64,000 nt of DNA from an uncultured Candidatus Binatia bacterium. Lineage in GTDB: Bacteria; Desulfobacterota; Binatia; UBA9968; JAJDTQ01. Within the stretch, counting starts at the first letter, position 1. Each line of letters begins with the position of its first letter. The translations under genes and the position numbers were made by a program. Location: positions 2,343,333 through 2,407,332 of the forward strand of contig OZ241976.1 in assembly GCA_965204205.1 (NCBI GenBank), given 5' to 3'. The notes beneath the pieces were generated by a model. It worked only from the letters and a program-made list of their open reading frames with translations, did not search any database and was not told the DNA's origin. This document shows, piece by piece, positions 2-59,455 of this stretch.

Positions 2-1420
2 GTGGGGTTCCTGCCGGGCATCGGCGGTCCCACCACCCTGGCCATCATGCTTCCGTTCGTGATGACCATGCAGGACCCCTATCCGGTCATCGCGCTGCTG
101 GTGGGCATGGACGCGGTGGGCAACACCGCCAGCGCCTTCCCCTCCATCCTCATCTCCATACCCGGGAGCTCGGGCTCCCAGGCCACGATCCTGGATGGCT
201 ATCCCCTGGCGAAGCAGGGGCAGGCCGCCCGGGCGTTGAGCGCGTCCTTCGCGGCGTCGCTGCTGGGCGGGTTCGTGGGCGCCTTCGTCCTGGTGGCCTC
301 CCTGCCGGTGTTGCGGCCCCTGGTGCTCACCTTCGGCTCGCCGGAATTCTTCGTGCTCACGCTGTGGGGCCTCACCATGGTGGCGGTGCTGAGCGGCAAC
401 GCGCCCGTCAAGGGCATCATCGCCGGCATCATCGGAGTCCTGGTGGCCACCGTGGGCATGGACGTGAAGTCCGGAATACCCCGGTTCGACTTCGACTACG
501 ACTATCTCTGGGACGGCATCAGCCTCATCATCGTCGCCCTGGGGCTGTTCGGCATCCCCGAGATCATCGACCTGGCGAGCCGCAAGACCAGCATCGCCGA
601 GCACGAGGAACTGGGCAGCGGTTTCCTGGAGGGCATCAAGGACGTGTTCCGGCACTGGTGGCTGATGGTGCGCTCCTCCGCCATCGGCGCGTGGGTCGGT
701 TTCCTGCCGGGGCTCGGCAGCTCCGTCGCCGACTGGTTCGCCTATGCCCACGCGGTGCAGACCGAGAGGAACACCGACGGCTTCGGCAAGGGCGACATCC
801 GCGGGGTCATCGCGCCCGAGGCCTCCAACAACGCCAAGGAAGGCGGCGGGTACATCCCCACCCTGGCCTTCGGCATCCCCGGCAGCACCTCCACCGCGTT
901 GATCCTCACCGCCTTCGTGGCCGTGGGCATCAAGCCCGGCCCCGACATGCTGACCTCGCAGCTCGACCTCACCTTCGCGGTGATCTGGACCCTGGTCATC
1001 GGCAACGTCATCGCGGTGGCGATGTGCTGCGCCCTCGCCAGGCCCATGGCGCGGGCATGCTTCATGCCGTTCCACAGCATCGTGCCGCTGGTGGCGGTGT
1101 TCGTCTTCATCGGCGCCTTCGCCGCCAACTTCAGCGTCAACGACCTGCGGGCGCTGCTGGTGTTCTCGCTGCTGGGCTTCATGATGCGGCGGCACGGGTG
1201 GCCGCGGCCGCCGCTGCTTTTGGGGGTGGTGCTGGGCACCAAGATGGAGACCTACCTATGGCTCTCCTACACCCGGTACGGACTTGAATGGCTGCTGCGC
1301 CCGGCCGTCATCGTGCTGCTGATACTGGTGGCGGCCTCGCTCTGCTACCCGATGCTGAAGGCGCGCCGTGAGCGCCGGCTGGCCGCCGCCGAGGCCGGCG
1401 GGGAACCGAGCGGGACATGA
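2..1420 (+). CDS. tctA: Tripartite tricarboxylate transporter large permease TctA (5' partial, runs off window start)
   Basis: 472-aa polytopic membrane ORF with repeated G-rich permease segments typical of the TctA family. It is in frame from base 2 with no upstream start inside the window. Confidence 0.8.
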   Translation: MGFLPGIGGPTTLAIMLPFVMTMQDPYPVIALLVGMDAVGNTASAFPSILISIPGSSGSQATILDGYPLAKQGQAARALSASFAASLLGGFVGAFVLVASLPVLRPLVLTFGSPEFFVLTLWGLTMVAVLSGNAPVKGIIAGIIGVLVATVGMDVKSGIPRFDFDYDYLWDGISLIIVALGLFGIPEIIDLASRKTSIAEHEELGSGFLEGIKDVFRHWWLMVRSSAIGAWVGFLPGLGSSVADWFAYAHAVQTERNTDGFGKGDIRGVIAPEASNNAKEGGGYIPTLAFGIPGSTSTALILTAFVAVGIKPGPDMLTSQLDLTFAVIWTLVIGNVIAVAMCCALARPMARACFMPFHSIVPLVAVFVFIGAFAANFSVNDLRALLVFSLLGFMMRRHGWPRPPLLLGVVLGTKMETYLWLSYTRYGLEWLLRPAVIVLLILVAASLCYPMLKARRERRLAAAEAGGEPSGT

Positions 1421-1899
1421 ACGGAGACCGGCGACAACGCTACGAGGGCGCCCTCTTCACCGTGGTCATCGGGCTGGTGCTGTTGTGGGCGCTGCAGGTG
1501 GCCCACGGGTGGGACGAGTTGCGGGCATCCATCATCGTGTTCTTCCTGGGCGGCATCGGCGTGTGCCTGGCCGCGCTCCAGCTCGTGATGGATCTGCGCT
1601 CGGGCCGCGGCGGGACGGGGGCGCCGGGTATCCACATGGATGTCCCGTCCGTGCAGCCCGGAAGCCGTTGGGGCAACGTCGAAATCTGGGCCTGGATCCT
1701 GGGGTTCTATGCCGCCATCCGCATCATCGGGTTCCCGCCGGCGGTGCCCCTGTTCGTGTTCACCTACGCCAAAACCTACGGCGGGGGCTGGTTCCTCTCC
1801 GGCCTCCTGGCCGCGCTGGCCTGGGGGTTCGTCTACGGCGTGTTCGAGCACATCCTGCACGTGCCCTGGCCGGAGCCGTGGCTGTGGGGACCCGATTGA
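1417..1899 (+). CDS. Small 4-TM membrane protein, TctB-like (putative)
   Basis: 160 aa, four hydrophobic helices, start overlaps the tctA stop (ATGA). The tctA-then-tctB order is atypical, so this is tentative. Confidence 0.45.
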   Translation: MNGDRRQRYEGALFTVVIGLVLLWALQVAHGWDELRASIIVFFLGGIGVCLAALQLVMDLRSGRGGTGAPGIHMDVPSVQPGSRWGNVEIWAWILGFYAAIRIIGFPPAVPLFVFTYAKTYGGGWFLSGLLAALAWGFVYGVFEHILHVPWPEPWLWGPD

Positions 1900-1976: not shown

Positions 1977-2136
1977 GTGTCCTGTCCGGTCAATTAGCAC
2001 AATAATCTGCGGGTCTTTTTCGCCGTCGGCGGCGTTGCTCTTCCTCGCGTGGTGCCCGCCACAGCTCGTCATCGCGCCTTGCCGACAACGAAAAATCCTC
2101 CGCATATTATCATGCCAATTTAACCGGACAGGACAC
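1977..2136. repeat. 160-bp MITE-like element with 14-bp perfect terminal inverted repeats (GTGTCCTGTCCGGT ... ACCGGACAGGACAC), abutting IS5 copy A
   Basis: TIRs read directly at 1977-1990 and 2123-2136. The internal 2030-2136 segment recurs at 40025-40155. Confidence 0.4.
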
Positions 2137-3437
2137 TAGCAGGCCGTGGAAAAACCCACGGATTTGAGTGTTGGTGACTGATGCAAAGGGAATCGGACCC
2201 TCGACGGGCTGGGATAGAGGTCATTCGCACGCCTTTTCATGCCAACGACCGTGGCGCAGACGCACGCCTCCACAGGAAGTGTGGTCACGTGCCCACTCCC
2301 AAGGTGCGCAGCCGCACCAGGTTGTAGGCCGCGAAGGTCAGGGTGAACTGGAAGTCCACCTTCGGAAGCCCCCGATGCTTGAGCTTGCGCAACCCGCCGA
2401 CGGTCTTGGCCCATCCGAAGGCTTCCTCGATCCGCTTGCGCACTCGCTGGCTCTGAGTGTAGCCAGCGTGGCGGGTGGTGCGGCCGTCAATGGCCGAACG
2501 CCGATTGGTGTCGTTCTGCGCCACATGAGGACTCGCGTTCGCCCAGCGCAACCCCTCGACAAAGTCACGGGTATCGTACCCCTTGTCCGCACCCACGGTG
2601 AGCCGGCCCTTGCCGGGTCGCCCCTCGATCATGGACAGCGCCGACTCCCGCTCAGCCCGGCCGCTGGCCTGGGTGGTACGCGTGTCGACGATCAGTCCAT
2701 GGCGGTTGTCCATCAAGGCATGCCCCAGGTAGCACAACTTCGCTTCCTGCCCCTTGCCCTTGCGGTACTGCAGGGCCTGCGGGTCGGTGGTGGACTCATG
2801 GGTCGCATTGCTGCGCTTCTCGCCCCGGAAGTCCTCCTCGGCATTGCGTCCGCCGCCGCCCCGCGGTCCCTCGCCCCCTTTGGGGCGAAACGACTTCATC
2901 GACGCCCAGGCCTCCAGCAGCGTCCCATCGACACTGAAGTGCTCATCCGACAAAAGCCGGGCGTCACGCGCCTGCACCAGGATCTTCGCAAAGAACTCCC
3001 GGGCGATGTCCGAGCCGATCAACCGCTCCCGGTTCTTCGTGAACGTCGAGTGGTCCCACATCGCCTCGTCCATCGACAGCCCCACAAACCACCGGAACAA
3101 GAGGTTGTAGTCCAGTTGCTCCACCAACAGCCGCTCGCTGCGGATCGAGTAAAGCACCTGCAACAGCAACGCCCGCAGCAACTGTTCCGGCGCGATCGAA
3201 GGCCGCCCCGTGTGCGAGTACATCGCCTCCAACTCCCCGGACAGATCTTCCAGCGCCCGGTTCACCATCTCCCGGATCGGTCGCAACGGATGGTCCTTGG
3301 GAACACGGGCTTCCGGCGATACATAGCTGAACATGCCTTCTTGACGCGGATCAGTGCCTCTCATCGACTCCTCCGTCCCAGTACGAACATACAAAATATG
3401 TACCCGCGTCAGACGGACTTTTTCAACAACCTGCTAG
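2137..3437 (-). mobile_element. IS5-family insertion sequence, copy A (about 1.29 kb body flanked by CTAG at both ends)
   Basis: Near-identical to the element at 56236..57537. Imperfect terminal IRs CAGG(C/T)(C/T)GT(G/T)GAAAA. CTAG is present at 2137-2140 and 3434-3437, consistent with IS5-group YTAR targets and 4-bp duplication. Confidence 0.85.
2285..3394 (-). CDS. IS5-family DDE transposase (DUF772 N-terminal region plus DDE_Tnp_1)
   Basis: 369-aa ORF. The N-terminus MFSYVSPEARVPKDHPLRPIR is characteristic of IS5-group transposases. A second copy in the window differs at about nine residues. Confidence 0.9.
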   Translation of the reverse strand: MYVRTGTEESMRGTDPRQEGMFSYVSPEARVPKDHPLRPIREMVNRALEDLSGELEAMYSHTGRPSIAPEQLLRALLLQVLYSIRSERLLVEQLDYNLLFRWFVGLSMDEAMWDHSTFTKNRERLIGSDIAREFFAKILVQARDARLLSDEHFSVDGTLLEAWASMKSFRPKGGEGPRGGGGRNAEEDFRGEKRSNATHESTTDPQALQYRKGKGQEAKLCYLGHALMDNRHGLIVDTRTTQASGRAERESALSMIEGRPGKGRLTVGADKGYDTRDFVEGLRWANASPHVAQNDTNRRSAIDGRTTRHAGYTQSQRVRKRIEEAFGWAKTVGGLRKLKHRGLPKVDFQFTLTFAAYNLVRLRTLGVGT

Positions 3438-4231
3438 CGGAACGTGATCACCGAGCTCACGCCGCGGCCGGCGTCGGTGTGGATCACCTCGCCGGTCATG
3501 ATGCGGGACTGGGACGACGCCAGCAGCAAGTAGGCGGCGGCGTGGTCCTCCGGGACCACGGCGACTTCGAGGAGGTTGTTGCCGAGGCCCGCGGGCGGTC
3601 GGGGAGCGCCGAAGACGTCGTCTCCGCCGGCTCCGGGGGCCAGGGACGGCGCCGCGCGCAGGCCGGTGGCGGTGCCGGACGGCGCCACCCCGTTCACCCG
3701 GACCGTGGGGGCCAGCTCGTTGGCCAACTGCCGCACCAAGCCCAGGGCGGCGTGCTTGGAGGCGACGTACAGGGTCCCGCCGCTCACGTAGTAGGACGAC
3801 GTGGACAGCGTGAACACCATGTTGCCGCGGGTCTTGATCAGCTCGGGGATGGCGGCCTTGGCGCCCAGGAAATAGCCCTTGACATTGACTCCGAGGACCT
3901 CGTCGTAGCCCTTCTCCAGCTCCTCGTCCGATAGCTCCGCCAGGGGCCGTCTGGCGTCGTGGATGCCGGCGTTGCCTACGAACACCGTCAGCTTTCCGAA
4001 CTCCGACACCGCCGCGGCCACCGCCCGGCGGTTGTCCTCCAGGCTGCGCACGTCGCCGGACACCACCGCCACTCCCTCGCCCACCTCGTCCTTCAGCGCG
4101 GCCAGTCGTTCCGCGGAACGGTCGAAGGCCACCACCTTGGCGCCCTCCTCGACGAAACGGACCACCACGGCCTTGCCGATCCCCGAACCGGCCCCGGTCA
4201 CGACCGCCACCTCGTTCTCGAGCCATTGCAT
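3434..4231 (-). CDS. SDR-family short-chain dehydrogenase/reductase
   Basis: TGAGSGIG Rossmann motif, NAG and YxxxK-like catalytic region. Start chosen at MQWLENE (ATG 4231) because an AAGGAG RBS lies 9 nt upstream. The stop TAG lies within the CTAG at the IS5 copy A junction. Confidence 0.85.
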   Translation of the reverse strand: MQWLENEVAVVTGAGSGIGKAVVVRFVEEGAKVVAFDRSAERLAALKDEVGEGVAVVSGDVRSLEDNRRAVAAAVSEFGKLTVFVGNAGIHDARRPLAELSDEELEKGYDEVLGVNVKGYFLGAKAAIPELIKTRGNMVFTLSTSSYYVSGGTLYVASKHAALGLVRQLANELAPTVRVNGVAPSGTATGLRAAPSLAPGAGGDDVFGAPRPPAGLGNNLLEVAVVPEDHAAAYLLLASSQSRIMTGEVIHTDAGRGVSSVITFR

Positions 4232-4438
4232 GGACGTTACCTCCTTGAGTGTGGGCTGTACCATACCAATCGCCGGGCCGGTTCGGAACCGTCCGGCGTC
4301 ACTCCGACCGGCGCCCTTCGGCTTCGCGCCGGCGGCGCGAAGCCGAAGGGCGCCATCCTGCTCGGCAGCAATGGATCAGCGCTTCCTTGACACCGCCACG
4401 CGCCCGGGGATAGAGTCGCCTGAGCGGACGGTGCGTCC

Positions 4439-5477
4439 CATGACGGTACGATTTCCCACAACCGGGGCCATCGCGGGCGACCTTTACGGCATGGTGTTGC
4501 GTGAGCTGACTCTGTGCAAGGCGACGTCCGACGAGACCATCGTTGTCTTCACCGACACCCGCACCAACGCCAACTACGCCGCCGCCTTCCTGGCCGCCGC
4601 CAAGGAAGTGGCCGCCAGCGCGTTCGAGATCAAGATCCCGCTGCTGCCCGGCACCGCCGGGGGCGACACCGACGTGACGCCGGTGGTGGAGATCCTGAAG
4701 AGCGCTCACCTGGTGGTGGACCTCACCACCGGTGGCGTCCTCTACCTCTACAGCAAGAGACTTGCGGACGTGCTGTCCGGCGGCACCCGGGTGCTGCAGG
4801 TGCGCGGCACCGAGGACCAGCTCCGGCGCTGCTTTCCCGACGAAGCGGTGCGGCGGCGGACCCTGAACGGCGCCCGGAAACTGGAGGACGCCGGCGAGAT
4901 ACGGGTCACCACCGGCACCGGCACGGACCTCTCCATGCGCAAGGACGGCCGGCGCGGCGTGACGCAGTACGGCATCAGCGACGTGGCCGGCCGCTGGGAC
5001 AGCTGGCCCTCGGGGTTCTTGTACTGCGCGCCGCTGGAGGACAGCGCCAACGGCACGCTGATGCTCGACCCCGGGGACCTGCTGGTGATGCTGGGCCGAT
5101 ACGTGCAGCAGCCGGTGCGCATCGAGGTCAAGGACGGCCGCATCACGGCCGTCGAAGGGGGCGTGGACGCCATCCTGCTCAAGGAGCACCTCGAGCAGTC
5201 GGGTGACCCCCAGGCCTTCATCATCTCGCACATCGGCTGGGGCACGGACGCGCGGGCGCGCTGGGTGGAGGTGGCGCAGCGCGGCACCGAGGAGGGCGCG
5301 CGCGACGCCCGCTCCACCTACGGCAACGTGCAGATCGCCTTCGGCGCCAACTACGCGCTGGGCGGAAAGAACACCACGCTGGCCCACGAGGACCTGATCC
5401 TGCGCCGGGCCGCTTTCCATCTCGACGGAGAGATGATCGTCGACGACGGCCAAATCATCCCCGAAGAGCTGAGGTGA
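4439..5477 (+). CDS. 2,5-dihydroxypyridine 5,6-dioxygenase-like protein (NicX / M29 aminopeptidase-like fold)
   Basis: C-terminal motifs GRWDSWPSGF, ISHIGWG and YGN..GG match my recollection of Pseudomonas NicX. Start ambiguous (ATG 4439 chosen; 4371 or 4491 possible). The long upstream ORF extension is antisense to the SDR gene. Confidence 0.6.
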
Positions 5478-5520
5478 CGGCTGTAGGCCGTAACGCCGTC
5501 GACACTGCAGGAGGAATCCC

Positions 5521-6375
5521 ATGAGCCTGACCGTCAAGCCCGTCTGCCCCGCCGTCGGCGCCGAGATCGAGGGCCTGGATCTGCGCGAGCCGCTGACCGA
5601 GGAAGCCCGTGAACAGATCCTGGACGCCTTTCACGAGTACGTGCTGCTGCTGTTCCGGGGACAGGAACTGACCGAGGATCAGCAGACGGCTTTCGCCACC
5701 ACCTTCGGCGAGTTGGGCAAGCGCACCGTGGGGGCCCGTTTCGTCAAGTCCCCCAAGGACACCTACGCCAACCCGGTGATGATGGTCACCAACCGCAGCG
5801 ACGACGGACCCACGGGCAACACCGCCTCCTTCGGCGACGGCGAGATGTGGTTCCACCACGACACCTGCTTCTACCCGGTGCCCAACATCGTCACCATGCT
5901 GTACGGCATGGAGGTCACCACCAGCGGCGGACTGACGCGTATCGCGAACATGTACCTGGCGTACGACAGTATCCCCCGGGAACTGCGCGACCGGCTGGAG
6001 GGACGAACCGTCCTGCAGGTTTACGACTACAACCGCTACCGCATCGACCCCAACGTGGACATGGCCGGCGCCCGAAGCCACGTGCAGCCCATCTTCATCA
6101 CCCACCCGGTGACCGGCAAGAAAGCGCTCTACGTGAACCGGACCATGACCGCGCACATCGAAGGGATGGACCGCGCCGAGAGCGACGCCATCCTGGACCA
6201 ACTGTTCGAAATCGCCGAGGACGACCGCATCGTTTACGACCACCAGTGGCGGGTGGGCGACCTGCTCATGTGGGACAACCGCTGCTCCACCCACGCGCGC
6301 ACCGACTTCCCCGCCGAGGAGGCGCGAATCCTGCGGCGCTGCACGGTGGCCGGGAAGGAGCCGGTCCACGCGTAG
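5521..6375 (+). CDS. TauD/TfdA-family Fe(II)/2-oxoglutarate-dependent dioxygenase, paralog 1
   Basis: 284 aa. HHD...H metal-binding pattern and an R near the C-terminus. AGGAGG RBS upstream. 55-60% identical to the next gene by eye. Confidence 0.85.
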   Translation: MSLTVKPVCPAVGAEIEGLDLREPLTEEAREQILDAFHEYVLLLFRGQELTEDQQTAFATTFGELGKRTVGARFVKSPKDTYANPVMMVTNRSDDGPTGNTASFGDGEMWFHHDTCFYPVPNIVTMLYGMEVTTSGGLTRIANMYLAYDSIPRELRDRLEGRTVLQVYDYNRYRIDPNVDMAGARSHVQPIFITHPVTGKKALYVNRTMTAHIEGMDRAESDAILDQLFEIAEDDRIVYDHQWRVGDLLMWDNRCSTHARTDFPAEEARILRRCTVAGKEPVHA

Positions 6376-6405
6376 GGACCGATTCCTCGGGAACAGGAGA
6401 AGACC

Positions 6406-7263
6406 ATGAGCTTGAACACAAGACCGCTGTCACCGGCCCTGGGAGTCGAGATCCTCGGACTGGACGTGAGCGAGCCGCTGGATGAAAAGGTCCGGGACGA
6501 GATCCTTGCGGAGTTCTACCAACACGTCGCGCTGCTGTTCCGCGGCCAGGACCTCACGGTGGAGCAGCAGAACCGCTTCACCACCACCTTCGGCGACATC
6601 GGCAAGCGCACCATCGGCCCCCGTCTTCGGAAATCCGCCGACGACATCTACACCACGCCGGTGATGGTGGTGAGCAACATCAAGGAGAACGGCAAGCCGC
6701 TCGAGGGGTCCTCGGCCAACGGCGACCGGGAGATGGGCTTCCACCAGGACACCGCCTTTCACGAGATCCCCGACCACGTCACCATCCTGTACGGCATCGA
6801 GGTGTCGTCCCACGGCGGCCATACCATGGTGACCAACCAGTACGCCGCCTACGACAGCGTCCCGGCCGACCTCAAGACGAAGCTGGAAGGATGCAAGGTG
6901 CTGCAGGTCTACGACTACCAGCGGCACACCGTGGGTCCCGACCTCGATCTGAGCGGCGCCCGCTATTTCATGCAGCCCATCTTCATCACCCACCCGGTCA
7001 CGGGCCGCAAGGCGCTGTACGTGAACCGCATGATGTCCGTCCACATCGAGGGCATGAACCGGGCCGAGAGCGACGCCATCCTGGGCGACCTGTTCGACAT
7101 CACCGAGGACCCGCGCTTCAGGTACGAGCACGTGTGGGAGGTGGGAGACCTGCTGATGTGGGACAACTTCTGCTCGATCCACGCCCGCACGTTCTACCCG
7201 GACGAGGAGCGCCGGCTGCTGCGGCGCACCACCGTGGCCGGCAAGGGCCAGTTGCACGCGTAA
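6406..7263 (+). CDS. TauD/TfdA-family Fe(II)/2-oxoglutarate-dependent dioxygenase, paralog 2
   Basis: 285 aa tandem paralog of 5521..6375. CAGGAG RBS upstream. Confidence 0.85.
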   Translation: MSLNTRPLSPALGVEILGLDVSEPLDEKVRDEILAEFYQHVALLFRGQDLTVEQQNRFTTTFGDIGKRTIGPRLRKSADDIYTTPVMVVSNIKENGKPLEGSSANGDREMGFHQDTAFHEIPDHVTILYGIEVSSHGGHTMVTNQYAAYDSVPADLKTKLEGCKVLQVYDYQRHTVGPDLDLSGARYFMQPIFITHPVTGRKALYVNRMMSVHIEGMNRAESDAILGDLFDITEDPRFRYEHVWEVGDLLMWDNFCSIHARTFYPDEERRLLRRTTVAGKGQLHA

Positions 7264-7365
7264 GCCGGTCTCGCCCGGCCCCCTGGACCCCGGGTCAAGC
7301 CCGGGGTAACGGAAGTGTCGGCCGGGGTGACGGAAGGGGCGTGCCGAGCCTTCCGGGACCGCGCG

Positions 7366-7761
7366 TCAGGTCAGTCCCGTCTTGACCTCGATCTGGTTGC
7401 CGTCCGGATCCAGGATGTACTGCGAGTCGCTGCGCCCGGTGGCGCCGGTGCGCGGCACCACGCCGCCTTCGAGCCTCACCCCCATGGCTTTTGTCCGGTC
7501 GAGGATTTCCCGGAACTCGGGGTCGGTGAAGGTCAGGCAGAAGTGGTCCACGCCGCCGTGCTCCTCCGGGCTGCGGGACCGGAACGATGCCTCGTTCAAC
7601 AGGAAGATAATGCTTCCGCCCACCTCCATGGCGGCCGCCTCGACATTGCTCCTTCCGAGCATGCGGCGGTCCACCATCTCGAAGCCGAAGAGATCGCTGT
7701 AGAACCGGATGGAGCGGTCGAGGTCGGTGACCTTGACCCCCACGTGGTCGAGTAGCGGCAT
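7366..7761 (-). CDS. VOC/glyoxalase-bleomycin-resistance family protein
   Basis: 131 aa from MPLLDHVGVKV. Typical glyoxalase-I-like betaalphabetabetabeta signature (HVGV..D...FY) and an ILDPDGN motif. Confidence 0.8.
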   Translation of the reverse strand: MPLLDHVGVKVTDLDRSIRFYSDLFGFEMVDRRMLGRSNVEAAAMEVGGSIIFLLNEASFRSRSPEEHGGVDHFCLTFTDPEFREILDRTKAMGVRLEGGVVPRTGATGRSDSQYILDPDGNQIEVKTGLT

Positions 7762-7897
7762 CACGCACCTCCTTGTCGGATACACGCTTATACCCCGAAC
7801 GGGGGGCGAAGGGTATCGGCACCCTCCCGACAGCTTCATGCGTGGCGGCGGATCAGGTAGACTAGGAGCCTGTCCGAACGATCGAATGGTTGCGGGT

Positions 7898-7920
7898 AGG
7901 GGCGACCGCGGGTCGCCCCT
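7898..7920. repeat. REP-like palindrome AGGGGCGACCGCGGGTCGCCCCT
   Basis: Perfect 9-bp stem with 5-nt loop. Member of a dispersed family with at least eight copies in the window. Confidence 0.5.
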
Positions 7921-7980
7921 ACGGGAGTCCACCTCAGCGTAGGACCCGGCCAATCATCCTCGAAAGCCCCGGTCACGCAC

Positions 7981-10329
7981 ATGAGCGACGCGGAAAGAGA
8001 CGGTACTAAGGCCAGGCGCGAGCCGCCGCTGGACTTCATCCGCACCATCGTGCGGGACGACCTCGCCGCCGGCAAGCACGCGGGCGGGGTGGTGACGCGT
8101 TTCCCGCCGGAACCCAACGGCTTTCTCCACATCGGCCACGCCAAGTCCATCTGCCTCAACTTCGGGGTCGCCGGAGAGTTCGGCGGGCGTTGCAACCTGC
8201 GCTTCGACGACACCGACCCCGCCAAGGAAGACACGCTTTTCGTCGAAGCCATCAAGGACAACATCCGCTGGCTGGGCTTCGACTGGGGAGAGGGCCTCTA
8301 CAACGCTTCCGACTACTTCGAGGAGCTCTACCGGTTCGCCGTGCAGCTCATCGAGCGGGGCGGCGCCTACGTCTGCAGCCTGAGCGAGGCGGAGATTCGC
8401 GAGACCCGGGGCACGGTGACGGAACCGGGCCGCGGGAGCCCGCACCGCGGCCGCGGCGTCGACGAGAACCTGGACCTCTTCGCGCGCATGCGCGACGGGG
8501 AGTTCCCGGACGGCGCCCACGTGCTGCGGGCGAAGATCGACATGGCGTCCCCGAACATGAAGATGCGCGATCCCGTGATCTACCGCATCCGCCACGTCAC
8601 CCACCACCACACCGGCGACGCCTGGCCCATCTACCCCATGTACGACTTCGCCCATCCGCTGTCGGATGCCCTGGAAGGCGTCACCCACTCGCTCTGCACG
8701 CTGGAGTTCGAGAACAACCGCGAGTTCTACGACTGGATTCTCGGACAGGTGGACGTCCCTTCCACGCCGCGCCAGATCGAGTTCGCCCGGCTGAACCTCG
8801 ACTACACCGTCATGAGCAAGCGCCGGCTGCTGGAGTTGGTGGAGGAGAAGCACGTAGCCGGCTGGGACGATCCGCGCATGCCCACCCTGGCCGGGCTGAG
8901 GCGGCGCGGCTACACACCGGAGGCGATCCGCAACTTCTGCCACAGCGTGGGCATCGCCAAGAGCGACAACACGGTGGAGATCGGGCAACTCGAGCACTTC
9001 GTCCGGGACGACCTGAACCACAAGGCGCCGCGGGTGTTGGCGGTGGAGCGGCCGCTCAAGGTGGTCCTCACCAACTTCCCGGAGGACCGCGTTGAGGAGC
9101 TGGAAGCCCCTTACTTCCCCCACGACGTTCCCAGGGAGGGTTCGCGCACCATCCCCTTTTCCCGCGAGCTCTACATCGAACGGGACGACTTCCTCGAAGA
9201 GCCTCCCAAGGGATACCATCGGCTGGCGCCGGGCCGGGAAGTCCGGCTGCGCTACGCCTACGTCATCCGCTGCGACGAGGCGGTCAAGGACCCCGACACC
9301 GGGGCGGTGCGGGAGTTGCGTTGTTCCTACGACCCGGAGACCCGGAGCGGCTCCGACAGGAGCGGCAAAAAGGTCCAGGGTACCATCCAATGGGTGTCCG
9401 CCGCGCATGCCCTGGAAGCCGAGTTGCGGCTCTACGACCGGCTGTTCTCGGCGCCGGACCCCCAGGGCGATCCGGGCCGCGACTACCGCGAGCTCATGAA
9501 CCCCCGGTCCCTGGAAACCGTCAGCGGCCGGGTGGAGCCGAGCCTGGCCGGCGCGCGTGCGGGCGACCGCTTCCAGTTCGAACGGCTGGGATACTTCTGC
9601 GTGGACCCGGACTCCACGGCCGATGCCCTGGTCTTCAACCGCATCGTGACGCTCCGGGACTCGTGGGCCAAGATCGTGCGGCGAGGCGAGGGCGGCGGAG
9701 AGCGCCGGCGTTCGCGCGGGACGCCGGCAGCCCGCTCGAGCGCCGGCAAGGTTCCGGCCCGGACGCGCGGACCCGTGGACCCGGGATTGCCGGCGGCCCG
9801 GCGTTCGCGCATGGAGCACTACCGCGACCGGTTGGGCCTCGCGCCCGGCGACGCGCTGCTGCTGGCCACGGAGGACGCCCCGGCCGCGTTCTTCGACGAG
9901 GCGGTCCGCGGCCACGACAATCCCAGGGCCGTGGCCAACTGGGTCGTCAACGAGTTGCGCCCGGCGCTGAAGGACAAGCCCCTGGAGTCACTGCCGCTGA
10001 CGCCGGCGGCGCTGGCGGAGCTGGTGGCTCTCATCGACGGCCAGGCCATTTCCGGCAACGCCGCCAAGCAGGTCTTCGCGATGTTGCTCGAGGACGGGGG
10101 GAGCCCGGCGGGGATCGTCGAAAGACTGGGGCTCCGCCAGGTGGCCGACGCCGGACAGATCGAGCCCGCGGTGGACGCGGTCATCGCCGCCAACCCGGCC
10201 AACGTCGCCCTCTATCGTGAAGGAAAGACCAGTCTGCTCGGATTCTTCGTCGGCCAGGTGATGAAATCCACCAACGGCAAGGCCGACCCCCGCCTGGTCA
10301 ACGAGTTGCTGCGCTCGAAGCTCGCGTGA
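7981..10329 (+). CDS. glnS: Glutaminyl-tRNA synthetase with C-terminal YqeY/GatB-like extension
   Basis: HIGH motif (FLHIGHAKS), VMSKR (KMSKS variant) and a class I core of about 555 aa. This is followed by a roughly 220-aa Arg-rich linker plus a YqeY-like helical domain, as in Deinococcus-type GlnRS. Confidence 0.9.
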
Positions 10330-10942
10330 CGGGCGGCAACGGCCGCCCCGGCCGCATGCGGGCGAACGTCGGCCGCCGGATGCCGCGACTGTCGGCCCTT
10401 TGGTGAAACCGAGGGCTGGAATCGCTCCTCCGTTTCCGGAACATCCGATGGCACCCCGAGCAGTTCTCCTGCAAACGCGCGAAGACGGCGTCGGGCGGCA
10501 TCGCCGCAAGCTCCCGCGGCGTAGGTTCCCCGGTGGCTGCGGGGGCGGCGCGGCCCGCCCCACGTTCATTGGATGCCGCCGCCGCCAACGCACCGGCGTA
10601 GTCGGTGAGTTGCCGCGCCATGGCGGAGAAACGCTCCCAATCGACCCATATCTCGGCCTTCGCCCGTGTCGGGTGTTGCAGGCTCCCTTCCGGGAACAAC
10701 GCGGTCAGCTTCTCGTCCCCGTGTCGGGCGATGATTCCCGCGTATGTCTTGACCCGTCCGGCATCGTAGGGTTGCCTTCCGCGCATCATCGCCCCTAAAG
10801 CCTTCATGGCTCGCCCCATGTCTTCCATGGCGTCCATGCGCTGCTTGACGATACCGGTGGCGCCGCGGTGTGCCAGCACCCCGGAGGAAGCCAACGGCAG
10901 CGTCAGGGCGACGGTAGCGGCCAACAAAACCTTCGGCAGCAT
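10298..10942 (-). CDS. Class II c-type cytochrome (cytochrome c'-like) with unusual C-terminal tail
   Basis: Signal peptide [24 protein letters not shown]. Single CSGCH haem site near the C-terminus. A 49-aa basic tail follows and overlaps the convergent glnS 3' end by 32 bp. Confidence 0.6.
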
Positions 10943-10961
10943 GGCGACGGCTCCGAGCACC

Positions 10962-11405
10962 TCAAAAGATTCCCTTGGCGCGTTGCAGCGCCCGCACGTA
11001 GCCAATGATGTCCTTGACCTGGCCGTCCGAAAGGCCCGGAACCGGCGCCATGTTGCCGAAACGCCAGTGATGGGCGCGCACGCCCCTCCTCACGGCCAGG
11101 ATGAACGCCATGTCCGAATGGTGGCCCGGCTCGTAGTAGCGGTGAACCAGCGGCGGCCCCTGAGCCGATCCGGCCGCGTTCAGGCCGTGGCAAACCGCGC
11201 ACTTCTGTTTGAACAGCGCCTCGCCGGGCATGCCCTTGACGGGGGCGGCCGGGACCATGGCGGCCATGTTGCCGGGGGTTTGCGTCATGTGCCGGCCATG
11301 GCCGGGCCACATGGCCCATGCCGCCGCCAGCACGGCCGCGACCGCCGCAACGATGAGTATCCTGCTTTTCGTCACTGCCAACGGCCTCGCTCTACGACGC
11401 ACCAC
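10962..11405 (-). CDS. Class I c-type cytochrome (membrane-anchored, CAVCHG)
   Basis: N-terminal hydrophobic anchor, CxxCH, and an M residue about 60 aa downstream as a likely axial ligand. Listed start is GTG; true start uncertain. Confidence 0.65.
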   Translation of the reverse strand: MVRRRARPLAVTKSRILIVAAVAAVLAAAWAMWPGHGRHMTQTPGNMAAMVPAAPVKGMPGEALFKQKCAVCHGLNAAGSAQGPPLVHRYYEPGHHSDMAFILAVRRGVRAHHWRFGNMAPVPGLSDGQVKDIIGYVRALQRAKGIF

Positions 11406-11456
11406 GAAAACGTACCTTTGCCGGAAGGTCGGGAGATGGAAGGGCGGGTCCGGATG

Positions 11457-11996
11457 TCAGGACTTGCCCAGCGTCACCAGCAGACTCGCCAGGTCGTCGG
11501 CGTGCTCCTCTTCCATCTTGAGGATGTCCTCGATGATCCGGCGGGTGGTGGGGTCGTCGTTGGCGAGCCAGCGTATAATCTCGGAGTAGGTCTCGATGGC
11601 CACCCGCTCGGCTACCAGGTCTTCCTTGATCATCGCCTCCAGGGTGTCGCCCTCTTCGTAGGCCGCGTGGGAACGGGTCGCCAGCCCCTCGGGACTGAAG
11701 TTGGGCGAGCCGCCGAGCTGGGTGATGCGCTGGGCCACCCAGTCCGCGTGCATCTGCTCTTCGTTGGCGTGCTGGAGGAACTCCGCCGCCACCGGACCGG
11801 CGTTGATGCCGCTGGCCATGAAATAATGATTCTTGTAGCGCAGGATGCACACGATCTCGGTGGCCAGCACCTCGTTCAGCACCGCCAGCACCTGCTCCCG
11901 GTTGGCCAGATAGGCGCCGGTGACGGCCCCCTGTTCCATCTTCTCCCGCGCCCGTTTCTGGATCGCCTCAAGGTCCGTCTTGAAGGGCTCCTTCAT
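11457..11996 (-). CDS. bfr: Bacterioferritin
   Basis: Ferritin-like four-helix pattern. E...EEQMHADW and ILRYKNHYFMASG resemble Bfr di-iron and haem-Met regions. Start MKEPFKTD placed by codon arithmetic from the ORF end. Confidence 0.8.
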   Translation of the reverse strand: MKEPFKTDLEAIQKRAREKMEQGAVTGAYLANREQVLAVLNEVLATEIVCILRYKNHYFMASGINAGPVAAEFLQHANEEQMHADWVAQRITQLGGSPNFSPEGLATRSHAAYEEGDTLEAMIKEDLVAERVAIETYSEIIRWLANDDPTTRRIIEDILKMEEEHADDLASLLVTLGKS

Positions 11997-12138
11997 TCCG
12001 CTCCCTCCTTCGAAGTGTGTTCGGGTCTGCTGTCCCAACACTTCATTGTACCGCGTTTTCTTGAGGTCCAGAAATGGCGAAGGTGCCGCGATCGGTTTCT
12101 CCTGACACGAAAGCGATACGAAGAGGTGCCGCTCCTCC

Positions 12139-14616
12139 TCAGAACTGCATTCCGAGGCTGAGAAAGAAGGTGCGCCCCCAACCGGCTTCCGTGGGGCCGT
12201 CCACGGCACTCGGGTTGGAGGTGTCCACCGCGAGGCCGGTGTCGGTGACGTTGAATACGCCCGCCGACACGCGCGCACCTTTCAGACCCAGCGGGTCGGC
12301 CCAGTCCAGCACCAGATCGTGGCCGGTCCAGGACCTGAAAGTTCCGGTACCCGTCCGGTTCTTGTAGCCGGCGCGGTAATAGGTGGTCCAGATGGCACTC
12401 AGGCCGCCCCGCCGCGCAAGGATTCCCATGCGGGCGACATTCTTGGGGAGGGGAAACCGGTCCTCTTCGCCCGCGATTCGGAGTTCGGTGCTGGTGACGT
12501 GCCGCCAGGCCGCGCGCAGGCCGACCACTCCCCAGCCCGTCCGGAAGCCCCCGCCGAGCCGTGTATTGATGCCCGAGAGATCGGTCTCGACGACGTTTGC
12601 ATACTTGGCGTGAATCGTGATGTCGCCGGCGGTGCGCTCGATGCAGTTCTCCCTTTCGCCCTCCGCGCATTCATGCAGGTTTTCCATGTGCCAATCCGCG
12701 CTGTTCTGCCCCGGCAGACCGGAGCGAGAAAGCCGATACCATTCCACGTTCAGGAAGAACGGCCCCTTGCGGGCCTCGGCGCCGGCTGCGAGCCTTTCGG
12801 TGTCCCAAGGATCGAGTTCCGGGTTGCCCACCGTCACGCGCGTCACCTGCCGTGGGTTGAGCTCGTCGCAAGAGCGGGGCGGGCTCCCGCTCCCCGGATC
12901 GCACTCGATGTAGGGGTGGCCCTGCACCTCCGAGCTGTAGAGATACAGCATGGAGGGCGGCCTCTCTCCCGCGCCCCAGGAGCCGCGCAGGGTGATGAGG
13001 TCGCTCAGCCGGTAGTCGGCCCCAAGGCGCCAGGACGCCATTCCGCCCACATCGTCGGTTTCGTCCCCGCGCGCCGCGACCCTGAGATCCAGGTTCCCGG
13101 CCAGCGGCAGTGACATCTCGGCAAAGGCCGCGGCGGCCTTGCGCTCGCCTTCATAACTGGCTCCACCGGAACCAAGCACCTGTGACACGTCATAGGTCTC
13201 GCCGTCATTGCTCCGATAGAGGGAGATGTCACGCGCTTTCCCGGTGCCCAGCTCGAGCCCCGCGGTCCATGCGGAATCCCGGCCGCCTATGGCGAATCCG
13301 GACCCTTCCAGCGCCATCCGGGCATCCAGGCCGTCCCAGCCGAAATCGTTCTCCAGCCGCAGGCTGCTGTACTCGATGGCATCCAAATGCTCTTGGGCGT
13401 TCGAGAACGGGTCCGCGAGGTTGTAGCGTCCTGCCCGGATTTCCTCTGTTATCCTTTCGGAGTGCACGAAGGTGTTGCCGTCCACGAAACCGTCCAGCCG
13501 AGAGGCGCTGATACGTGCATCGTAGCCGAGGTCCTCCGTTATCCGCCCTTCGAGGCCGACGGAAACGTCGTATTCCTCGGTGTCCGTCAGCCAGTCCCGG
13601 TTGCCGTGGCGGACAAAGCGATGCGCCGCCACGAACAGGTCGTTGCCGTCCGCCTCGAAGGACGAGCCGGCTGCTTCGTTGATCTCATCCCGCAAGCCCG
13701 GGTTCGGCGTGAACGTGAACGAATCGATGGACGGCGCGTAGCGGAACGCCGCATCGCCCCGCGTTACGTTCACGTCCAGGTGCAGCTCGGACTCTTCGGT
13801 GAGCGGATGGTCCAGGTTCAGGATCGCGCTCTTCTGCTCGTAGCTCCTGGTGTTCCACATGATCGCGCCGTAGGCGAAACCGCAGCCCTTGTCGCCAGGC
13901 GAGGTGATGCTCGGAGGGTTTCTGAGGGGGCCGGTATAGCCTCTCGCCGGGTCGCACTCCCCCAGCGCGACCGACCTCACGCCAGTCGGCATTCCGCCTT
14001 CATCTCGCTGGACGACCCAGACCGTGTTGCCGCCGACGCTGACGTTCTGCGCTTCGTTGAACGCGCCGTCCTTCTTCCAGACGGAACGGCTGTAGTCCCT
14101 GCTCCGGGCGGTAATCTCCTGGCGTGTGAGGACGTCCGCGCCCAGGGTCATGCGGCCCTTGCCCACCGCGCCGCCCCAGAAGACGCTTCCCTGCCAGCCG
14201 TCGCCGCCGTCCCGGCTCGGCATCCGCGCGAGCGCTCGCGTCTCGAAGCCGTCCAGGTCGGTCCGCAGCACGACGTTGAGGGCGCCGCGCACGGCACTGC
14301 CGCCGAGAGTGCCCAGGCTGTCGCCGCTGAGAAGCTCGAGGCGCTCGATGGCCGAAAGCGGCAAGGTGTCCAGATCGCCGGCAGTAGTGGCGTAGGGCCT
14401 GCCGTCGACCATGACGAGCAGGGACTGCCCTCCGGTGAGGAAGTAGCGGGCGATGCCGGTGTCCAGCAGTTCCTGCAGCGTCTGGGCGCCGGAACGCTCG
14501 ATAAAATCCCGCTCGAACTTGGCGATGACGCGCGGGGCGGGCGCCAGCGGGCCGGCATGGACCGCGCTCACCGCCAGTACGGCGAAAACGGCAAGCAAAG
14601 CCAAGAACCTCTTCAT
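12139..14616 (-). CDS. TonB-dependent outer-membrane receptor
   Basis: Signal peptide MKRFLALLAVFAVLAVSAVHA. Plug-domain motifs near the N-terminus. Long beta-rich body and a terminal aromatic F. Confidence 0.8.
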   Translation of the reverse strand: MKRFLALLAVFAVLAVSAVHAGPLAPAPRVIAKFERDFIERSGAQTLQELLDTGIARYFLTGGQSLLVMVDGRPYATTAGDLDTLPLSAIERLELLSGDSLGTLGGSAVRGALNVVLRTDLDGFETRALARMPSRDGGDGWQGSVFWGGAVGKGRMTLGADVLTRQEITARSRDYSRSVWKKDGAFNEAQNVSVGGNTVWVVQRDEGGMPTGVRSVALGECDPARGYTGPLRNPPSITSPGDKGCGFAYGAIMWNTRSYEQKSAILNLDHPLTEESELHLDVNVTRGDAAFRYAPSIDSFTFTPNPGLRDEINEAAGSSFEADGNDLFVAAHRFVRHGNRDWLTDTEEYDVSVGLEGRITEDLGYDARISASRLDGFVDGNTFVHSERITEEIRAGRYNLADPFSNAQEHLDAIEYSSLRLENDFGWDGLDARMALEGSGFAIGGRDSAWTAGLELGTGKARDISLYRSNDGETYDVSQVLGSGGASYEGERKAAAAFAEMSLPLAGNLDLRVAARGDETDDVGGMASWRLGADYRLSDLITLRGSWGAGERPPSMLYLYSSEVQGHPYIECDPGSGSPPRSCDELNPRQVTRVTVGNPELDPWDTERLAAGAEARKGPFFLNVEWYRLSRSGLPGQNSADWHMENLHECAEGERENCIERTAGDITIHAKYANVVETDLSGINTRLGGGFRTGWGVVGLRAAWRHVTSTELRIAGEEDRFPLPKNVARMGILARRGGLSAIWTTYYRAGYKNRTGTGTFRSWTGHDLVLDWADPLGLKGARVSAGVFNVTDTGLAVDTSNPSAVDGPTEAGWGRTFFLSLGMQF

Positions 14617-14648
14617 CGAAAAACTCCTTCCCTTCACACCTGACCGGT

Positions 14649-16292
14649 TCAACGTGCGCCCCGGACTTCCGTGGTGATGAGGTCCAGGATGTCCTGGCTC
14701 GTGATCGAGCCGACGAACGCCTTGGACTCCCGGTCGATCACCGGTATCGCCGTGAGCGAGCTCTCCGTCATCCGCTGGAGGGCGTCTTCCGCCGGCTCGT
14801 CCGCCCACGTATTCGGCGTGCTGGTGCGCGCAATCTTTCCCAGGTCGGTGTCCGCCCACGCATGCTTGGGCAGATACCTGAGCATGGCGAGGGACACGAT
14901 GCCCGCCGATCCGTCACTGCCCTTGATCACGTAGTCCTGTTGTCCGGGCGCGATCCACCGGTCGGCGAACTCGCGAACCGTCAGGTCCGTCTCCGGGTGA
15001 GGATGGTTGCGGTCGATGATGTCGCCGACGGTGATGTCGTCGAGGGCGAAGCGAATCATGGACGGCGGCACCGGCTGGGGCAACGACACAGGATCCGTGG
15101 GCTTGGCCCGGCTTACCGCGAAGCTGATGGCCGGAGGAGTCAGCAGAATGTAGGCGAGCATGATGAGCACGAACAACGAGAAGATGTCGGACCCGATGAG
15201 GCCGTGTTCCAGGAGCACGAGCAGCACGGCGATCTCGGCGACGCCCTTGGCCATCAGGCCGGTGGCGATGGTGAAGGGCATCTCCAGACGGGCCGCCGAT
15301 GCCCCCAGCCAGGCGCCGGCGAAGTTCCCCACCAACGGCACCACGATCAGCGCCACGATGGTCCATATCTGCAACTCGGTGAACGACAGGCTGAGGTGCA
15401 GCCCCGCCGAGCTGAAGAAGAGCGGCACGAAGAAGCCGTCCGCGACGCTCTTCATTCCCGGGATGATATCCCGGTGAACCTGGTGAGGCAGCCGCGAGAG
15501 CGCCACCCCCAGGAGCAACGCCCCGAGGGAGCCGTGCAGACCGATCCGCTCCGCCCCCACCACGGCGATGAACAGGACGCCGAGAATCAGCCCGAACGAC
15601 AGTTGCGGGACCCGCAGCAACCGTTCCAGCAACTCGATCAGCGGTGGGATGACCCGGCCGGCCAGAATCCAGGTGCCCACGATGAAGACGGCGATCTGTC
15701 CAAGCAGGAGCAGCACGCCGTCCAGGCTCACGTGCTCGGCGTGCTCGCCGATGGTGAACCCTATGATCAGCAGCACGAGCAGCTCGGCGATGAGCGCGAC
15801 GGTGAACATTTGGAGCCCGATGGGTTGCCGCAGGCGGTCCGCGTCGATCAACACCTTGGCGACAACGCCCAGGCTGGTGAGAGACAGTACCCCGGCCAAC
15901 GCCAGCGAACCGCTGAAGTCGAGACCCAGGCCGAAGTCGAAGATCAGGTCGAAGGTGACCACCAGGGAGGCCATGATCGGGATCACGACCGATATGACCG
16001 CGGCGATGAAGAACCGGCGATGGATCGCCGCCATGAACGCCGAGACGTCGAGCTCGTCCAGCCCGATCAGGAAGAAATAGAGGAAGATGCCGATGCTGAG
16101 AAGGACCTGCAGGTAGCTGTTGAGCTCGACGATGCCCGTTATCGGGCCGAGGAGAATCCCCGTGGCGGTGTAGGCGACGATGGAGTTCAGCCGGAAGCGC
16201 TGAAGAATGCCTTCCGCCAGCTTGGCGACGACAATGAGCAACCCGGTGGAGAGCAGCGCGTCTTCGAGCATGTCGGATGTTGCGGTCGGCAA
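14649..16292 (-). CDS. Cation:proton antiporter (CPA family Na+/H+ exchanger) with C-terminal CBS-pair domain
   Basis: 10-12 TM helices, then a roughly 130-aa soluble tail with a tandem CBS-like pattern. Confidence 0.8.
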   Translation of the reverse strand: MPTATSDMLEDALLSTGLLIVVAKLAEGILQRFRLNSIVAYTATGILLGPITGIVELNSYLQVLLSIGIFLYFFLIGLDELDVSAFMAAIHRRFFIAAVISVVIPIMASLVVTFDLIFDFGLGLDFSGSLALAGVLSLTSLGVVAKVLIDADRLRQPIGLQMFTVALIAELLVLLIIGFTIGEHAEHVSLDGVLLLLGQIAVFIVGTWILAGRVIPPLIELLERLLRVPQLSFGLILGVLFIAVVGAERIGLHGSLGALLLGVALSRLPHQVHRDIIPGMKSVADGFFVPLFFSSAGLHLSLSFTELQIWTIVALIVVPLVGNFAGAWLGASAARLEMPFTIATGLMAKGVAEIAVLLVLLEHGLIGSDIFSLFVLIMLAYILLTPPAISFAVSRAKPTDPVSLPQPVPPSMIRFALDDITVGDIIDRNHPHPETDLTVREFADRWIAPGQQDYVIKGSDGSAGIVSLAMLRYLPKHAWADTDLGKIARTSTPNTWADEPAEDALQRMTESSLTAIPVIDRESKAFVGSITSQDILDLITTEVRGAR

Positions 16293-19424: not shown

Positions 19425-19686
19425 GTGTGCTTCTCGACCTCCTGTGGAGTGGCTGTGTCCTGATCCCTGTCCGGCGGCGGTGTCGGTGGTGAACGGGCGC
19501 GGACGCGCTGAAACCGGCCCTTGCACCTCGTGTCGGACACGGGCGGGATTGAGAACCCGTCCCTACAATTAGATGAAATAGGCGCGGATGTCCAGGTTGA
19601 CACCCGGCCACGGCGGACCTATACGGGCTATAGGCCACGGACCGCCGGTTTCCGCGCGACATCGGTCCCGGCCCGGAGGCGGATGC

Positions 19687-21135: not shown

Positions 21136-21235
21136 CCCGGGCGGTCGGCGCCCACGCCCGGTCTCCCCGCAGGGAGACACGCCCATGAGATGCCCGTTAC
21201 GATTCGCGGCGGCGTAGGGGGTCGGAGGAAACCGC

Positions 21236-21964: not shown

Positions 21965-22045
21965 GTCGCCGTTACGGCGGCCGGCGCCGTAGAAGGCGCC
22001 GTGAGACGCGGAACCGGCCGCTGAGCCCGACAGGAGTCCGTTGAC

Positions 22046-50584: not shown

Positions 50585-50597
50585 ACTGACTTACCTC

Positions 50598-59444: not shown

Positions 59445-59455
59445 AGGGCTCCACT

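Follow-up and report, generated by a model that had tools for sequence, protein, structure and literature searches.

The stretch of DNA analysed here, termed the window, comprises 64,000 nt (GC content 63-71%) of contig OZ241976.1 from an uncultured Candidatus Binatia bacterium. Its closest public relatives are metagenome-assembled genomes (MAGs) labelled Candidatus Binatia or 'Deltaproteobacteria', two of which (i.e. loci L010 and L011) share the genes discussed here at 89-95% protein identity. Several related loci derive from sponge-associated MAGs. Positions 4440-7761 carry a homologue of the ring-cleaving dioxygenase NicX, two TauD/TfdA paralogues (i.e. TauD1 and TauD2) and a convergent gene for a protein of the vicinal oxygen chelate (VOC) fold; these four genes are regarded as genuine because their family matches lie far beyond chance (Table 1). 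A first-pass annotation had read them as a single catabolic module, and the functional unity of this module is the question addressed here.

All four genes were found where this annotation had put them, but the NicX-like gene starts at ATG 4440 and not at ATG 4371. The upstream start was rejected because at least 70 full-length homologues are all of 345 aa and all begin with MTVRFP, and because a promoter-like site lies downstream of 4371. This site is sigma-70-like and matches 10 of 12 consensus positions, which is a consensus match only; two promoter-like sites were found as compared to 0.5 expected per 6.3 kb. Other features had been described correctly: the NicX-like reading frame holds the sequence blocks AGRWDSWPSGFLY and IISHIGWGT, the two TauD proteins are paralogues of 59% identity, and the three co-oriented genes are separated by spacers of 43 bp (NicX-like/TauD1) and 30 bp (TauD1/TauD2) with GGAGG-type ribosome-binding sites (RBSs).

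Table 1. Features at the beginning of the window, with positions in the numbering of the 64,000-nt stretch (TTT, tripartite tricarboxylate transporter; SDR, short-chain dehydrogenase/reductase; GlnRS, glutaminyl-tRNA synthetase)
Feature	Position	Strand	Description	Best evidence
TctA (partial)	2-1420	+	TTT membrane part	PF01970, E=1e-123
TctB	1417-1899	+	TTT membrane part	PF07331, E=3e-9
IS5-family insertion sequence, 1302 bp	2136-3437	-	transposase 2285-3394	transpos_IS5_4, E=1.6e-88
SDR oxidoreductase, arene cis-dihydrodiol dehydrogenase type	3434-4231	-	divergent from NicX-like gene	PRK06200, E=7e-92
Promoter-like site, TTGACA-18 nt-TAGAGT	4387-4416	+	SDR/NicX-like divergent intergenic region	
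NicX-family non-haem Fe(II) dioxygenase homologue, 345 aa	4440-5477	+	'Gln177/Ser189/Ala302' clade	
TauD1, TauD/TfdA Fe(II)/2-oxoglutarate oxygenase, 284 aa	5521-6375	+		PF02668, E=4e-66
TauD2, TauD/TfdA Fe(II)/2-oxoglutarate oxygenase, 285 aa	6406-7263	+		PF02668, E=7e-58
VOC/glyoxalase-fold protein, single-domain, 131 aa	7366-7761	-	convergent with TauD2, divergent from glnS	PF00903, E=3e-15
GlnRS-YqeY fusion gene	7981-10329		follows VOC gene	

The family of the NicX-like protein was assigned from phmmer searches of the Protein Data Bank (PDB), Foldseek comparisons and precomputed PF26233 annotations. Among all PDB chains, phmmer matched this protein to Pseudomonas putida NicX alone (7cn3; E=3.2e-52), the alignment running over residues 46-367 (numbered on the 368-aa product that would start at ATG 4371) and over residues 16-347 of 7cn3, and no M29 aminopeptidase chain appeared among the matches even at E<=10. 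An AlphaFold (AF2) model of the protein, with a predicted local distance difference test score (pLDDT) of 75, matched 7cn3 with a template modelling (TM) score of 0.86 (E=2.5e-33), as compared to TM scores of 0.55-0.64, identities of 11-13% and E values of 1e-11 to 1e-13 for PepS, AmpS and AmpT. The fold is also shared with the crocagin protein CgnB. Local Pfam (E<=0.01) and NCBIfam scans of the protein gave no match, that to PF02073 (M29) included, and the precomputed annotation places PF26233 (NicX family) on all of its homologues. An identity as an M29 peptidase was rejected, there being neither a PF02073 match nor an M29 phmmer match and only a remote likeness of fold: the protein has a distant common fold with the M29 aminopeptidases (AmpS, 1zjc; AmpT, 2ayi; PepS, 4icq) but is about 60 residues shorter and has no match to them at the level of sequence. 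In contrast, it resembles NicX of P. putida KT2440 (PDB 7cn3/7cnt/7cup; PMC7910607) in family, fold, length (345 versus 350 aa), iron triad and conservation of the GRWDxWPSGF and SHIGWG blocks. Full-length sequence and fold both place the window protein in the NicX family, far from the M29 aminopeptidases, and the first-pass assignment to this family stands, as the protein groups with NicX and keeps the iron triad.

Functional residues of NicX were then compared to those of the window protein. The iron ligands of NicX (i.e. His265, His318 and Asp320) have identical counterparts within the ISHIGWG and LAHED motifs (His264, His316 and Asp318 in the numbering of the window protein), and this triad was invariant in a 17-sequence alignment. 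Leu104 and Arg293 of NicX are likewise retained. Substitutions were observed at Ser302 (to Ala), Glu177 (to Gln), His189 (to Ser), His105 (to Tyr) and Glu308 (to Ala), the Ala at position 302 being common to all 16 members of the clade, the window protein among them. In NicX, Ser302 is a fourth iron ligand and an S302A mutant lacks both iron and activity; hydrogen bonds to N1 and O1 of 2,5-dihydroxypyridine (2,5-DHP) come from Glu177 and His189, with residual activities of 2.7% for E177A, 6.9% for H189A and 0% for the double mutant; and Leu104-His105 form a gate that remains active in H105F and H105M and is dead in H105A (PMC7910607). The Leu of this gate is kept in the window protein and the His is replaced by Tyr. 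2,5-DHP is the sole substrate reported for NicX, and the narrow specificity of the enzyme is remarked upon in the structural paper (PMC7910607). As Ser302, Glu177 and His189, which are key to NicX activity, are all replaced, the window protein is probably not a 2,5-DHP dioxygenase equivalog, to judge from its residues. The Ser302Ala, Glu177Gln, His189Ser and His105Tyr changes thus speak against the function of a 2,5-DHP 5,6-dioxygenase that the first-pass annotation had taken from the conserved blocks, and the automatic name '2,5-dihydroxypyridine 5,6-dioxygenase' on such proteins is probably an over-annotation.

The distribution of these residues was examined in 109 NicX-family genes drawn from 80 species-representative genome loci and from MAG contigs. 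Together with the window protein and NicX, these gave an alignment of 111 sequences that was divided into classes by residues 177/189/302. The Glu/His/Ser class holds 26 of the 111 sequences, NicX included; its other members are 42-51% identical to NicX and mostly actinobacterial, as compared to an identity of 33% between NicX and the window protein. Other sequences fall into the Gln/His/Ala (37/111) and Gln/His/Ser (13/111) classes, and the Gln/Ser/Ala class (16/111) consists solely of the window protein and its relatives; further smaller classes exist. Ala is the commonest state at position 302 (60/111). In a neighbour-joining tree, the Gln/Ser/Ala class was monophyletic (16/16) and apart from a 33-member clade containing NicX. 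When 1.84 billion representatives at 50% identity were searched exhaustively with HMMER, the Gln/Ser/Ala clade gave one full-length cluster, the next beyond it being at 46% identity, and 153 clusters in all reached E<=1e-30. From these comparisons, the window protein is a new variant of the NicX family, belonging to a narrowly distributed clade with a rebuilt active site that is found in Binatia-like MAGs only.

Several arrangements of NicX-family genes were observed elsewhere in the sample. On a Binatia chromosome (OY761159.2; L028, positions 5130-15197), a Glu/His/Ser NicX gene lies between two Rieske oxygenase alpha subunits, with a molybdenum (Mo) hydroxylase large subunit, a 155-aa VOC protein, a second NicX-like paralogue (of the Ser/Asn/Ser class) and luciferase-like monooxygenases in the vicinity, which looks like a distinct N-heterocycle cluster. 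Caldilineaceae MAGs (L021, L031, L032, L041, L047, L064 and L089) carry three NicX-family paralogues per locus with three active-site classes, i.e. Gln/His/Ser, Gln/Asn/His with Gly for Asp320, and Leu/His/Ala. A further contig (L003, positions 8001-15861) holds two NicX-like paralogues of the window's clade, each having a TenA/haem-oxygenase-like gene and NMT1-type binding proteins as partners; this suggests a multi-substrate catabolic island.

Whether the NicX-like gene, the TauD pair and the VOC gene form one module was assessed by a neighbourhood scan, in which profiles and phmmer were run on all open reading frames (ORFs) up to 10 kb away from 93 NicX-family loci. A TauD gene was present in 10 of 10 close relatives and in 0 of the 83 other loci, so that the layout is indeed non-standard, as had been proposed. 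The 10 close-relative loci of the Gln/Ser/Ala class also contain an SDR (10), a VOC protein (9), a CADD-like, haem-oxygenase-like protein (7) and a bicupin (7). Partners in the eight other loci of this class were a CADD-like protein (7), an alpha/beta hydrolase (6), DUF3891 (5), an Mo-hydroxylase large subunit (3) and UbiD (3). The 25 loci of the Glu/His/Ser class (i.e. that of true NicX) are characterized by an Mo-hydroxylase (MoCoBD; 18), CoxM (14) and an isochorismatase (12), and the 50 loci of all remaining classes also lacked TauD. No literature linking NicX with TauD-type enzymes was found, and nothing relevant was found on DUF3891 or on NicX with haem-oxygenase-like proteins.

Gene order (i.e. 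divergent SDR and NicX-like genes, TauD, TauD, convergent VOC gene and glnS) is kept in L004-L011 and L090, with protein identities of 84-95% for intact copies in the close relatives. Beyond these, the two halves of the arrangement part company. NicX-like orthologues at 64-75% identity have other partners, with which they form tight operons, and no TauD nearby: a 71% identical orthologue (L178) lies between CADD-like and alpha/beta hydrolase genes with gaps of 19 and 10 bp, and a 70% identical one (L179) is accompanied by TTT transporters, TctC, RpiR, two Mo-hydroxylase large subunits, UbiD, DUF3891 and CoxM. Conversely, locus L091 has one-to-one orthologues of TauD1 (78%), TauD2 (79%) and the VOC protein (85%) plus the start of glnS, and upstream of its TauD pair are FUSC/AaeA efflux genes and no NicX-like gene. 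In L176 and L177, a tandem TauD pair (~50% identity) is found by itself, with EamA and MFS genes around it. A NicX-like gene was present in one of 40 TauD-centred loci of at least 5 kb, that one being L090, a close relative. The metagenome scan made with an alignment of TauD1 orthologues recovered relatives of <=59% identity only, and serves as a negative control for co-occurrence with NicX and not for orthologue-level synteny. As wider synteny splits the NicX-like gene from the TauD pair, the presumed module is better described as two separable units, and the distribution of orthologues does not support the first-pass proposal that NicX-like, TauD, TauD and VOC genes constitute one module.

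The spacers vary among close relatives. That between the NicX-like gene and TauD1 is unconserved, at 43-118 bp with gene boundaries from tblastn and 4 bp with the called genes of L090. The calls for L090 give lengths of 369 aa (NicX-like) and 246 aa (TauD1), which look like indel errors of a long-read assembly. The TauD1-TauD2 spacer, 30 bp in the window, is 144-314 bp in relatives L004, L005, L010 and L090 by virtue of palindromic repeats resembling repetitive extragenic palindromic (REP) elements, with several copies of the core GTCATTCCCGCGAAAGCGGGAATGAC.

Both TauD paralogues appear intact. In E. coli TauD, iron is bound by H99, D101 and H255, 2-oxoglutarate by T126 and R266, and the substrate anion by R270; all six residues are kept in both proteins, and the position of His70 is occupied by Arg. 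Among solved structures, both come nearest to RdpA/AAD-1 and TfdA, which are aryloxyalkanoate dioxygenases (E=6e-41 and 6e-38). With RdpA/AAD-1, SdpA/AAD-12-type enzymes and TfdA (PDB 6d1o, 5bk9 and 5bke), they have in common the HxD...H iron site and both C-terminal Arg residues, but the phmmer scores are moderate (134-144 bits), the loop at ~66-90 is different and a herbicide-catabolic context is absent. RdpA and SdpA are related enzymes whose specificities complement each other, and the two TauDs may be likened to them in being also a pair. The likeness to E. coli TauD (b0368) extends to PF02668 and the catalytic and binding residues, but identity is 27-30%. A role as taurine dioxygenase (NCBIfam NF007104) was rejected: scores were 145 and 138 bits as compared to a cutoff of 313, His70 is replaced and no tauABC transporter genes lie nearby. 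On residue conservation, TauD1 and TauD2 are predicted to be intact 2-oxoglutarate oxygenases for an anionic substrate, and the orthology relationships suggest that their duplication is older than the split from L091.

The VOC protein, which in L091 likewise accompanies the TauD pair and glnS, has its nearest solved structures in STM3117, GLOD5, a FosA-type protein and a BphC-III-related protein. It was considered as an extradiol ring-cleavage enzyme and rejected on account of its nearest relatives and its single 131-aa module, as compared to the two-domain ~290 aa typical of type I extradiol dioxygenases; by sequence, it is classed in the VOC superfamily but outside the ring-cleavage subgroup. 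The adjacent GlnRS has a C-terminal GatB/YqeY domain (NF011291, 1109 bits), as in the fused GlnRS of the Deinococcus type.

On the other side of the NicX-like gene lies the SDR, and this divergent pair is kept in 10 of 10 close-relative loci. The SDR is strongly similar to the arene cis-dihydrodiol dehydrogenases BphB, HcaB and PahB, as judged by the HcaB-type model (Table 1) and by its PDB matches (PahB, 9e-68; BphB, 1e-58). It differs from the BphB/HcaB equivalogs in scoring under their cutoffs (PRK06200, 307 bits versus 330; BphB_TodD, 230 versus 460) and in lacking a Rieske partner, no Rieske dioxygenase gene being present within 10 kb in the close-relative loci. In Acidimicrobiia MAGs (L037, L039, L040, L054, L055, L059 and L063; ~11036-11800), an SDR is located directly downstream of, and co-oriented with, a NicX-like gene of the Gln/His/Ala class. 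As this lineage is unrelated to that of the window, the adjacency lends mild support to a putative functional pairing of SDR and NicX-like proteins.

A block of genes upstream of the SDR is transcribed towards it in the close relatives and ends beside it. This block comprises two Amidohydro_2 genes (of decarboxylase/hydrolase types), a family III CoA-transferase, a FlK-type thioesterase, a CADD-family haem-oxygenase-like gene, a bicupin and TctCAB; the TctA and TctB genes of the window are the end of this cluster, as known from synteny in L004-L011. The bicupin is nearest to 5-aminosalicylate (E=2.5e-100) and gentisate (4e-82) 1,2-dioxygenases, with both scores under the equivalog cutoffs. The CADD-like gene lies ~6 kb upstream of the NicX-like gene in the close relatives. 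None of the 10 close-relative loci has an Mo-hydroxylase structural gene within 10 kb. In these neighbours (i.e. SDR, TTT transporter, bicupin dioxygenase, CADD-like protein and TauD pair), and in having no nicD/nicF/nicE-type or Mo-hydroxylase genes, the locus is unlike that of NicX.

Further genes of these kinds occur in the window. Positions 19582-22753 hold a UbiD decarboxylase gene and, behind it, a tandem pair of Haem_oxygenas_2/TenA (CADD)-like genes; another CADD-like gene was found at 44950-45783, a UbiX-type flavoprotein is encoded at 49991-50590, and the genome is rich in this CADD-like family, a partner of NicX-like genes elsewhere. Positions 51020-54674 encode XdhC, CoxE (VWA) and a MoxR/CoxD-type AAA protein, which are products of Mo-hydroxylase maturation genes; the structural genes of such an enzyme were not recognised anywhere in the window.

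With a probability of roughly 55%, the 3.4-kb stretch is a junction of two separately inherited gene sets in a group of uncultured high-GC Binatia and not a single pathway. Beyond the homologies, residue states and synteny counts given above, we infer a chemistry, a substrate class and a coupling to the SDR. The first unit would be the divergent SDR/NicX-like pair at the end of the upstream (hetero)aromatic acid catabolic island. The NicX-like protein most likely binds Fe(II) by a plain 2-His-1-Asp triad and most likely carries out an O2-dependent opening of a para-dihydroxylated (5-hydroxy-2-pyridone-like) hetero- or carbo-aromatic ring derived from an aromatic acid. As the pocket is altered where NicX reads the unsubstituted pyridone edge, its substrate is probably a substituted or different hydroxylated (hetero)aromatic compound, likely carboxylated, and not free 2,5-DHP. 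Loss of the Ser ligand would leave three canonical coordination sites open and may permit direct chelation of the iron by the substrate. The BphB-like SDR would yield an aromatic diol from a dihydrodiol or hydroxylated precursor. Ring opening is the most economical interpretation given the upstream block, the SDR and the partners of the clade (i.e. TTT, Mo-hydroxylases, UbiD and alpha/beta hydrolase). The second unit would be the tandem TauD1-TauD2 genes, an old self-contained pair with the small VOC gene and glnS as conserved neighbours, whose products most likely hydroxylate a carbon beside a heteroatom in an anionic small molecule (e.g. a carboxylate, sulfonate or sulfate ester). Co-transcription of the three plus-strand genes is possible and looks like a by-product of their adjacency.

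A number of observations weigh against this interpretation. The three co-oriented genes have gaps of only 43 and 30 bp, and none of the close relatives examined departs from their arrangement; no recognisable terminator was detected between the NicX-like gene, TauD1 and TauD2, and comparison of the relatives with L091 found no conserved internal promoter upstream of TauD1. Co-transcription, and hence co-function, of the three genes may therefore obtain in the lineage of the window, and the close relatives are too similar (at least 85% identity) for their shared synteny to be other than weak evidence either way. For the first unit, SDRs are very common, so the adjacency to NicX-like genes may be due to chance, and no alpha/beta hydrolase or isochorismatase for the ring-fission product was found within 10 kb in the close-relative loci or in the 21 kb scanned in the window. 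As S302A kills NicX, the Ala clade might also bind iron in a manner unlike NicX.

Foremost among the alternatives is a lineage-specific operon in which the TauDs prepare the substrate of the NicX-like enzyme, by hydroxylation or by O- or N-dealkylation of a pyridine or aryl-ether carboxylate, in place of the Mo-hydroxylases or flavin monooxygenases of the classical nic/pic/hpd clusters. Such an operon would fit the shared strand, short gaps, strong RBSs, lack of a terminator-like site between the genes, single promoter-like site upstream of the NicX-like gene and conserved order described above. It would also fit the contrast in Mo-hydroxylase structural genes, which are absent within 10 kb in the close relatives as compared to 18 of the 25 true-NicX loci, and the nature of the closest solved relatives of the TauDs, as aryloxyalkanoate dioxygenases release a phenol or pyridinol from an ether. 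Such an operon nevertheless appears doubtful: the TauD pair occurs with VOC and glnS but no NicX in L091 and alone in L176/L177, none of the 83 other NicX-family loci has a TauD, the NicX-TauD1 spacer is variable, the TauD1-TauD2 spacer tolerates repeat insertions, and support from synteny comes solely from the highly similar genomes. An extension of this operon, in which the NicX-clade enzyme and the two TauDs would form an Mo- and flavin-independent route for a substituted pyridine or an aryl- or pyridyl-ether carboxylate, is unlikely; the TauD paralogues would then perform two successive hydroxylation or dealkylation steps yielding the ring-cleavage substrate.

An alternative concerning the NicX-like protein itself is that the Gln/Ser/Ala clade is no longer an oxygenase but a scaffold for hydrolysis, isomerisation or binding, perhaps together with the CADD-like di-iron protein. 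The loss of iron and activity in the S302A mutant of NicX, the occurrence of the fold in metallopeptidases and CgnB, and the near-constant haem-oxygenase-like/CADD-like partner are all compatible with this idea. Invariance across the clade of the His/His/Asp triad and of many surrounding Gly, Trp and Arg positions instead speaks for a conserved metal site. Non-haem dioxygenases have a 2-His-1-carboxylate motif, with no further ligand, as their standard iron site, Ala302 is the commonest state in the family sample and no Pfam M29 match exists, making a non-oxygenase role rather improbable. Least probable of all is that the protein is an ordinary 2,5-DHP 5,6-dioxygenase (i.e. a NicX/Hpo/HpdF equivalog), as in the automatic names given by the Joint Genome Institute (JGI) to many homologues: the sequence match, the fold, the retained triad, Leu104 and Arg293, and the location of some clade members near Mo-hydroxylases, alpha/beta hydrolase and isochorismatase of NicD/NicF-like types agree with such a function, but identity to NicX is below that of the class with NicX's residues, the clade is monophyletic and apart from that of NicX, the close-relative loci lack NicD/NicF/NicE-like genes, and Ser302, Glu177 and His189 are replaced at positions where single Ala mutants of NicX are dead or nearly so (PMC7910607).

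Mobile elements flank the junction. The IS5-family copy between the TctB and SDR genes has terminal inverted repeats at 2136-2154 and 3419-3437 and CTAG at both ends; L010 lacks an insertion sequence (IS) in the same spacer, and the element is not part of the functional unit. A second copy at 56236-57537 is 97% identical and inverted, such that the two copies bracket ~52.8 kb including the NicX-like and TauD genes. Abutting the first copy is a 162-bp element (1976-2137) with 18-nt terminal inverted repeats (AGTGTCCTGTCCGGTCAA and TTAACCGGACAGGACACT), which is missing in L010 and looks like a miniature inverted-repeat transposable element (MITE). Beside the second copy, positions 57589-60716 hold an AAA_15/AAA_21 ATPase gene and a small PIN-like gene near another DDE transposase, a possible defence or toxin-antitoxin pair. 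The region 57589-59444 had been considered as a second copy of TctA/TctB from its matching ORF lengths, and this was rejected as the genes are those of the ATPase and the PIN-like protein.

The TauD pair, SDR and VOC protein are ordinary members of very large families, and the significance of the locus resides in the NicX-like protein and in the arrangement. Tight spacing in one genus was insufficient to define a pathway, as wider synteny split the supposed module in two. The characterized NicX-family enzymes that were found (NicX, with Hpo, HpdF and PicD of the same kind) all act on 2,5-DHP. The clade to which the window protein belongs keeps the iron triad but has changes in the unusual Ser ligand and in both residues that contact the N-H/C=O edge of the pyridone, and is hence a concrete candidate for another substrate specificity in this family. 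If the Mo- and flavin-independent route were true, a NicX-family enzyme would for the first time be known to act on something else than 2,5-DHP, and N-heterocycle catabolism would gain a new upstream logic. With Ala in place of the serine in every member, the clade is also a natural experiment on the need for a Ser ligand in ring cleavage.

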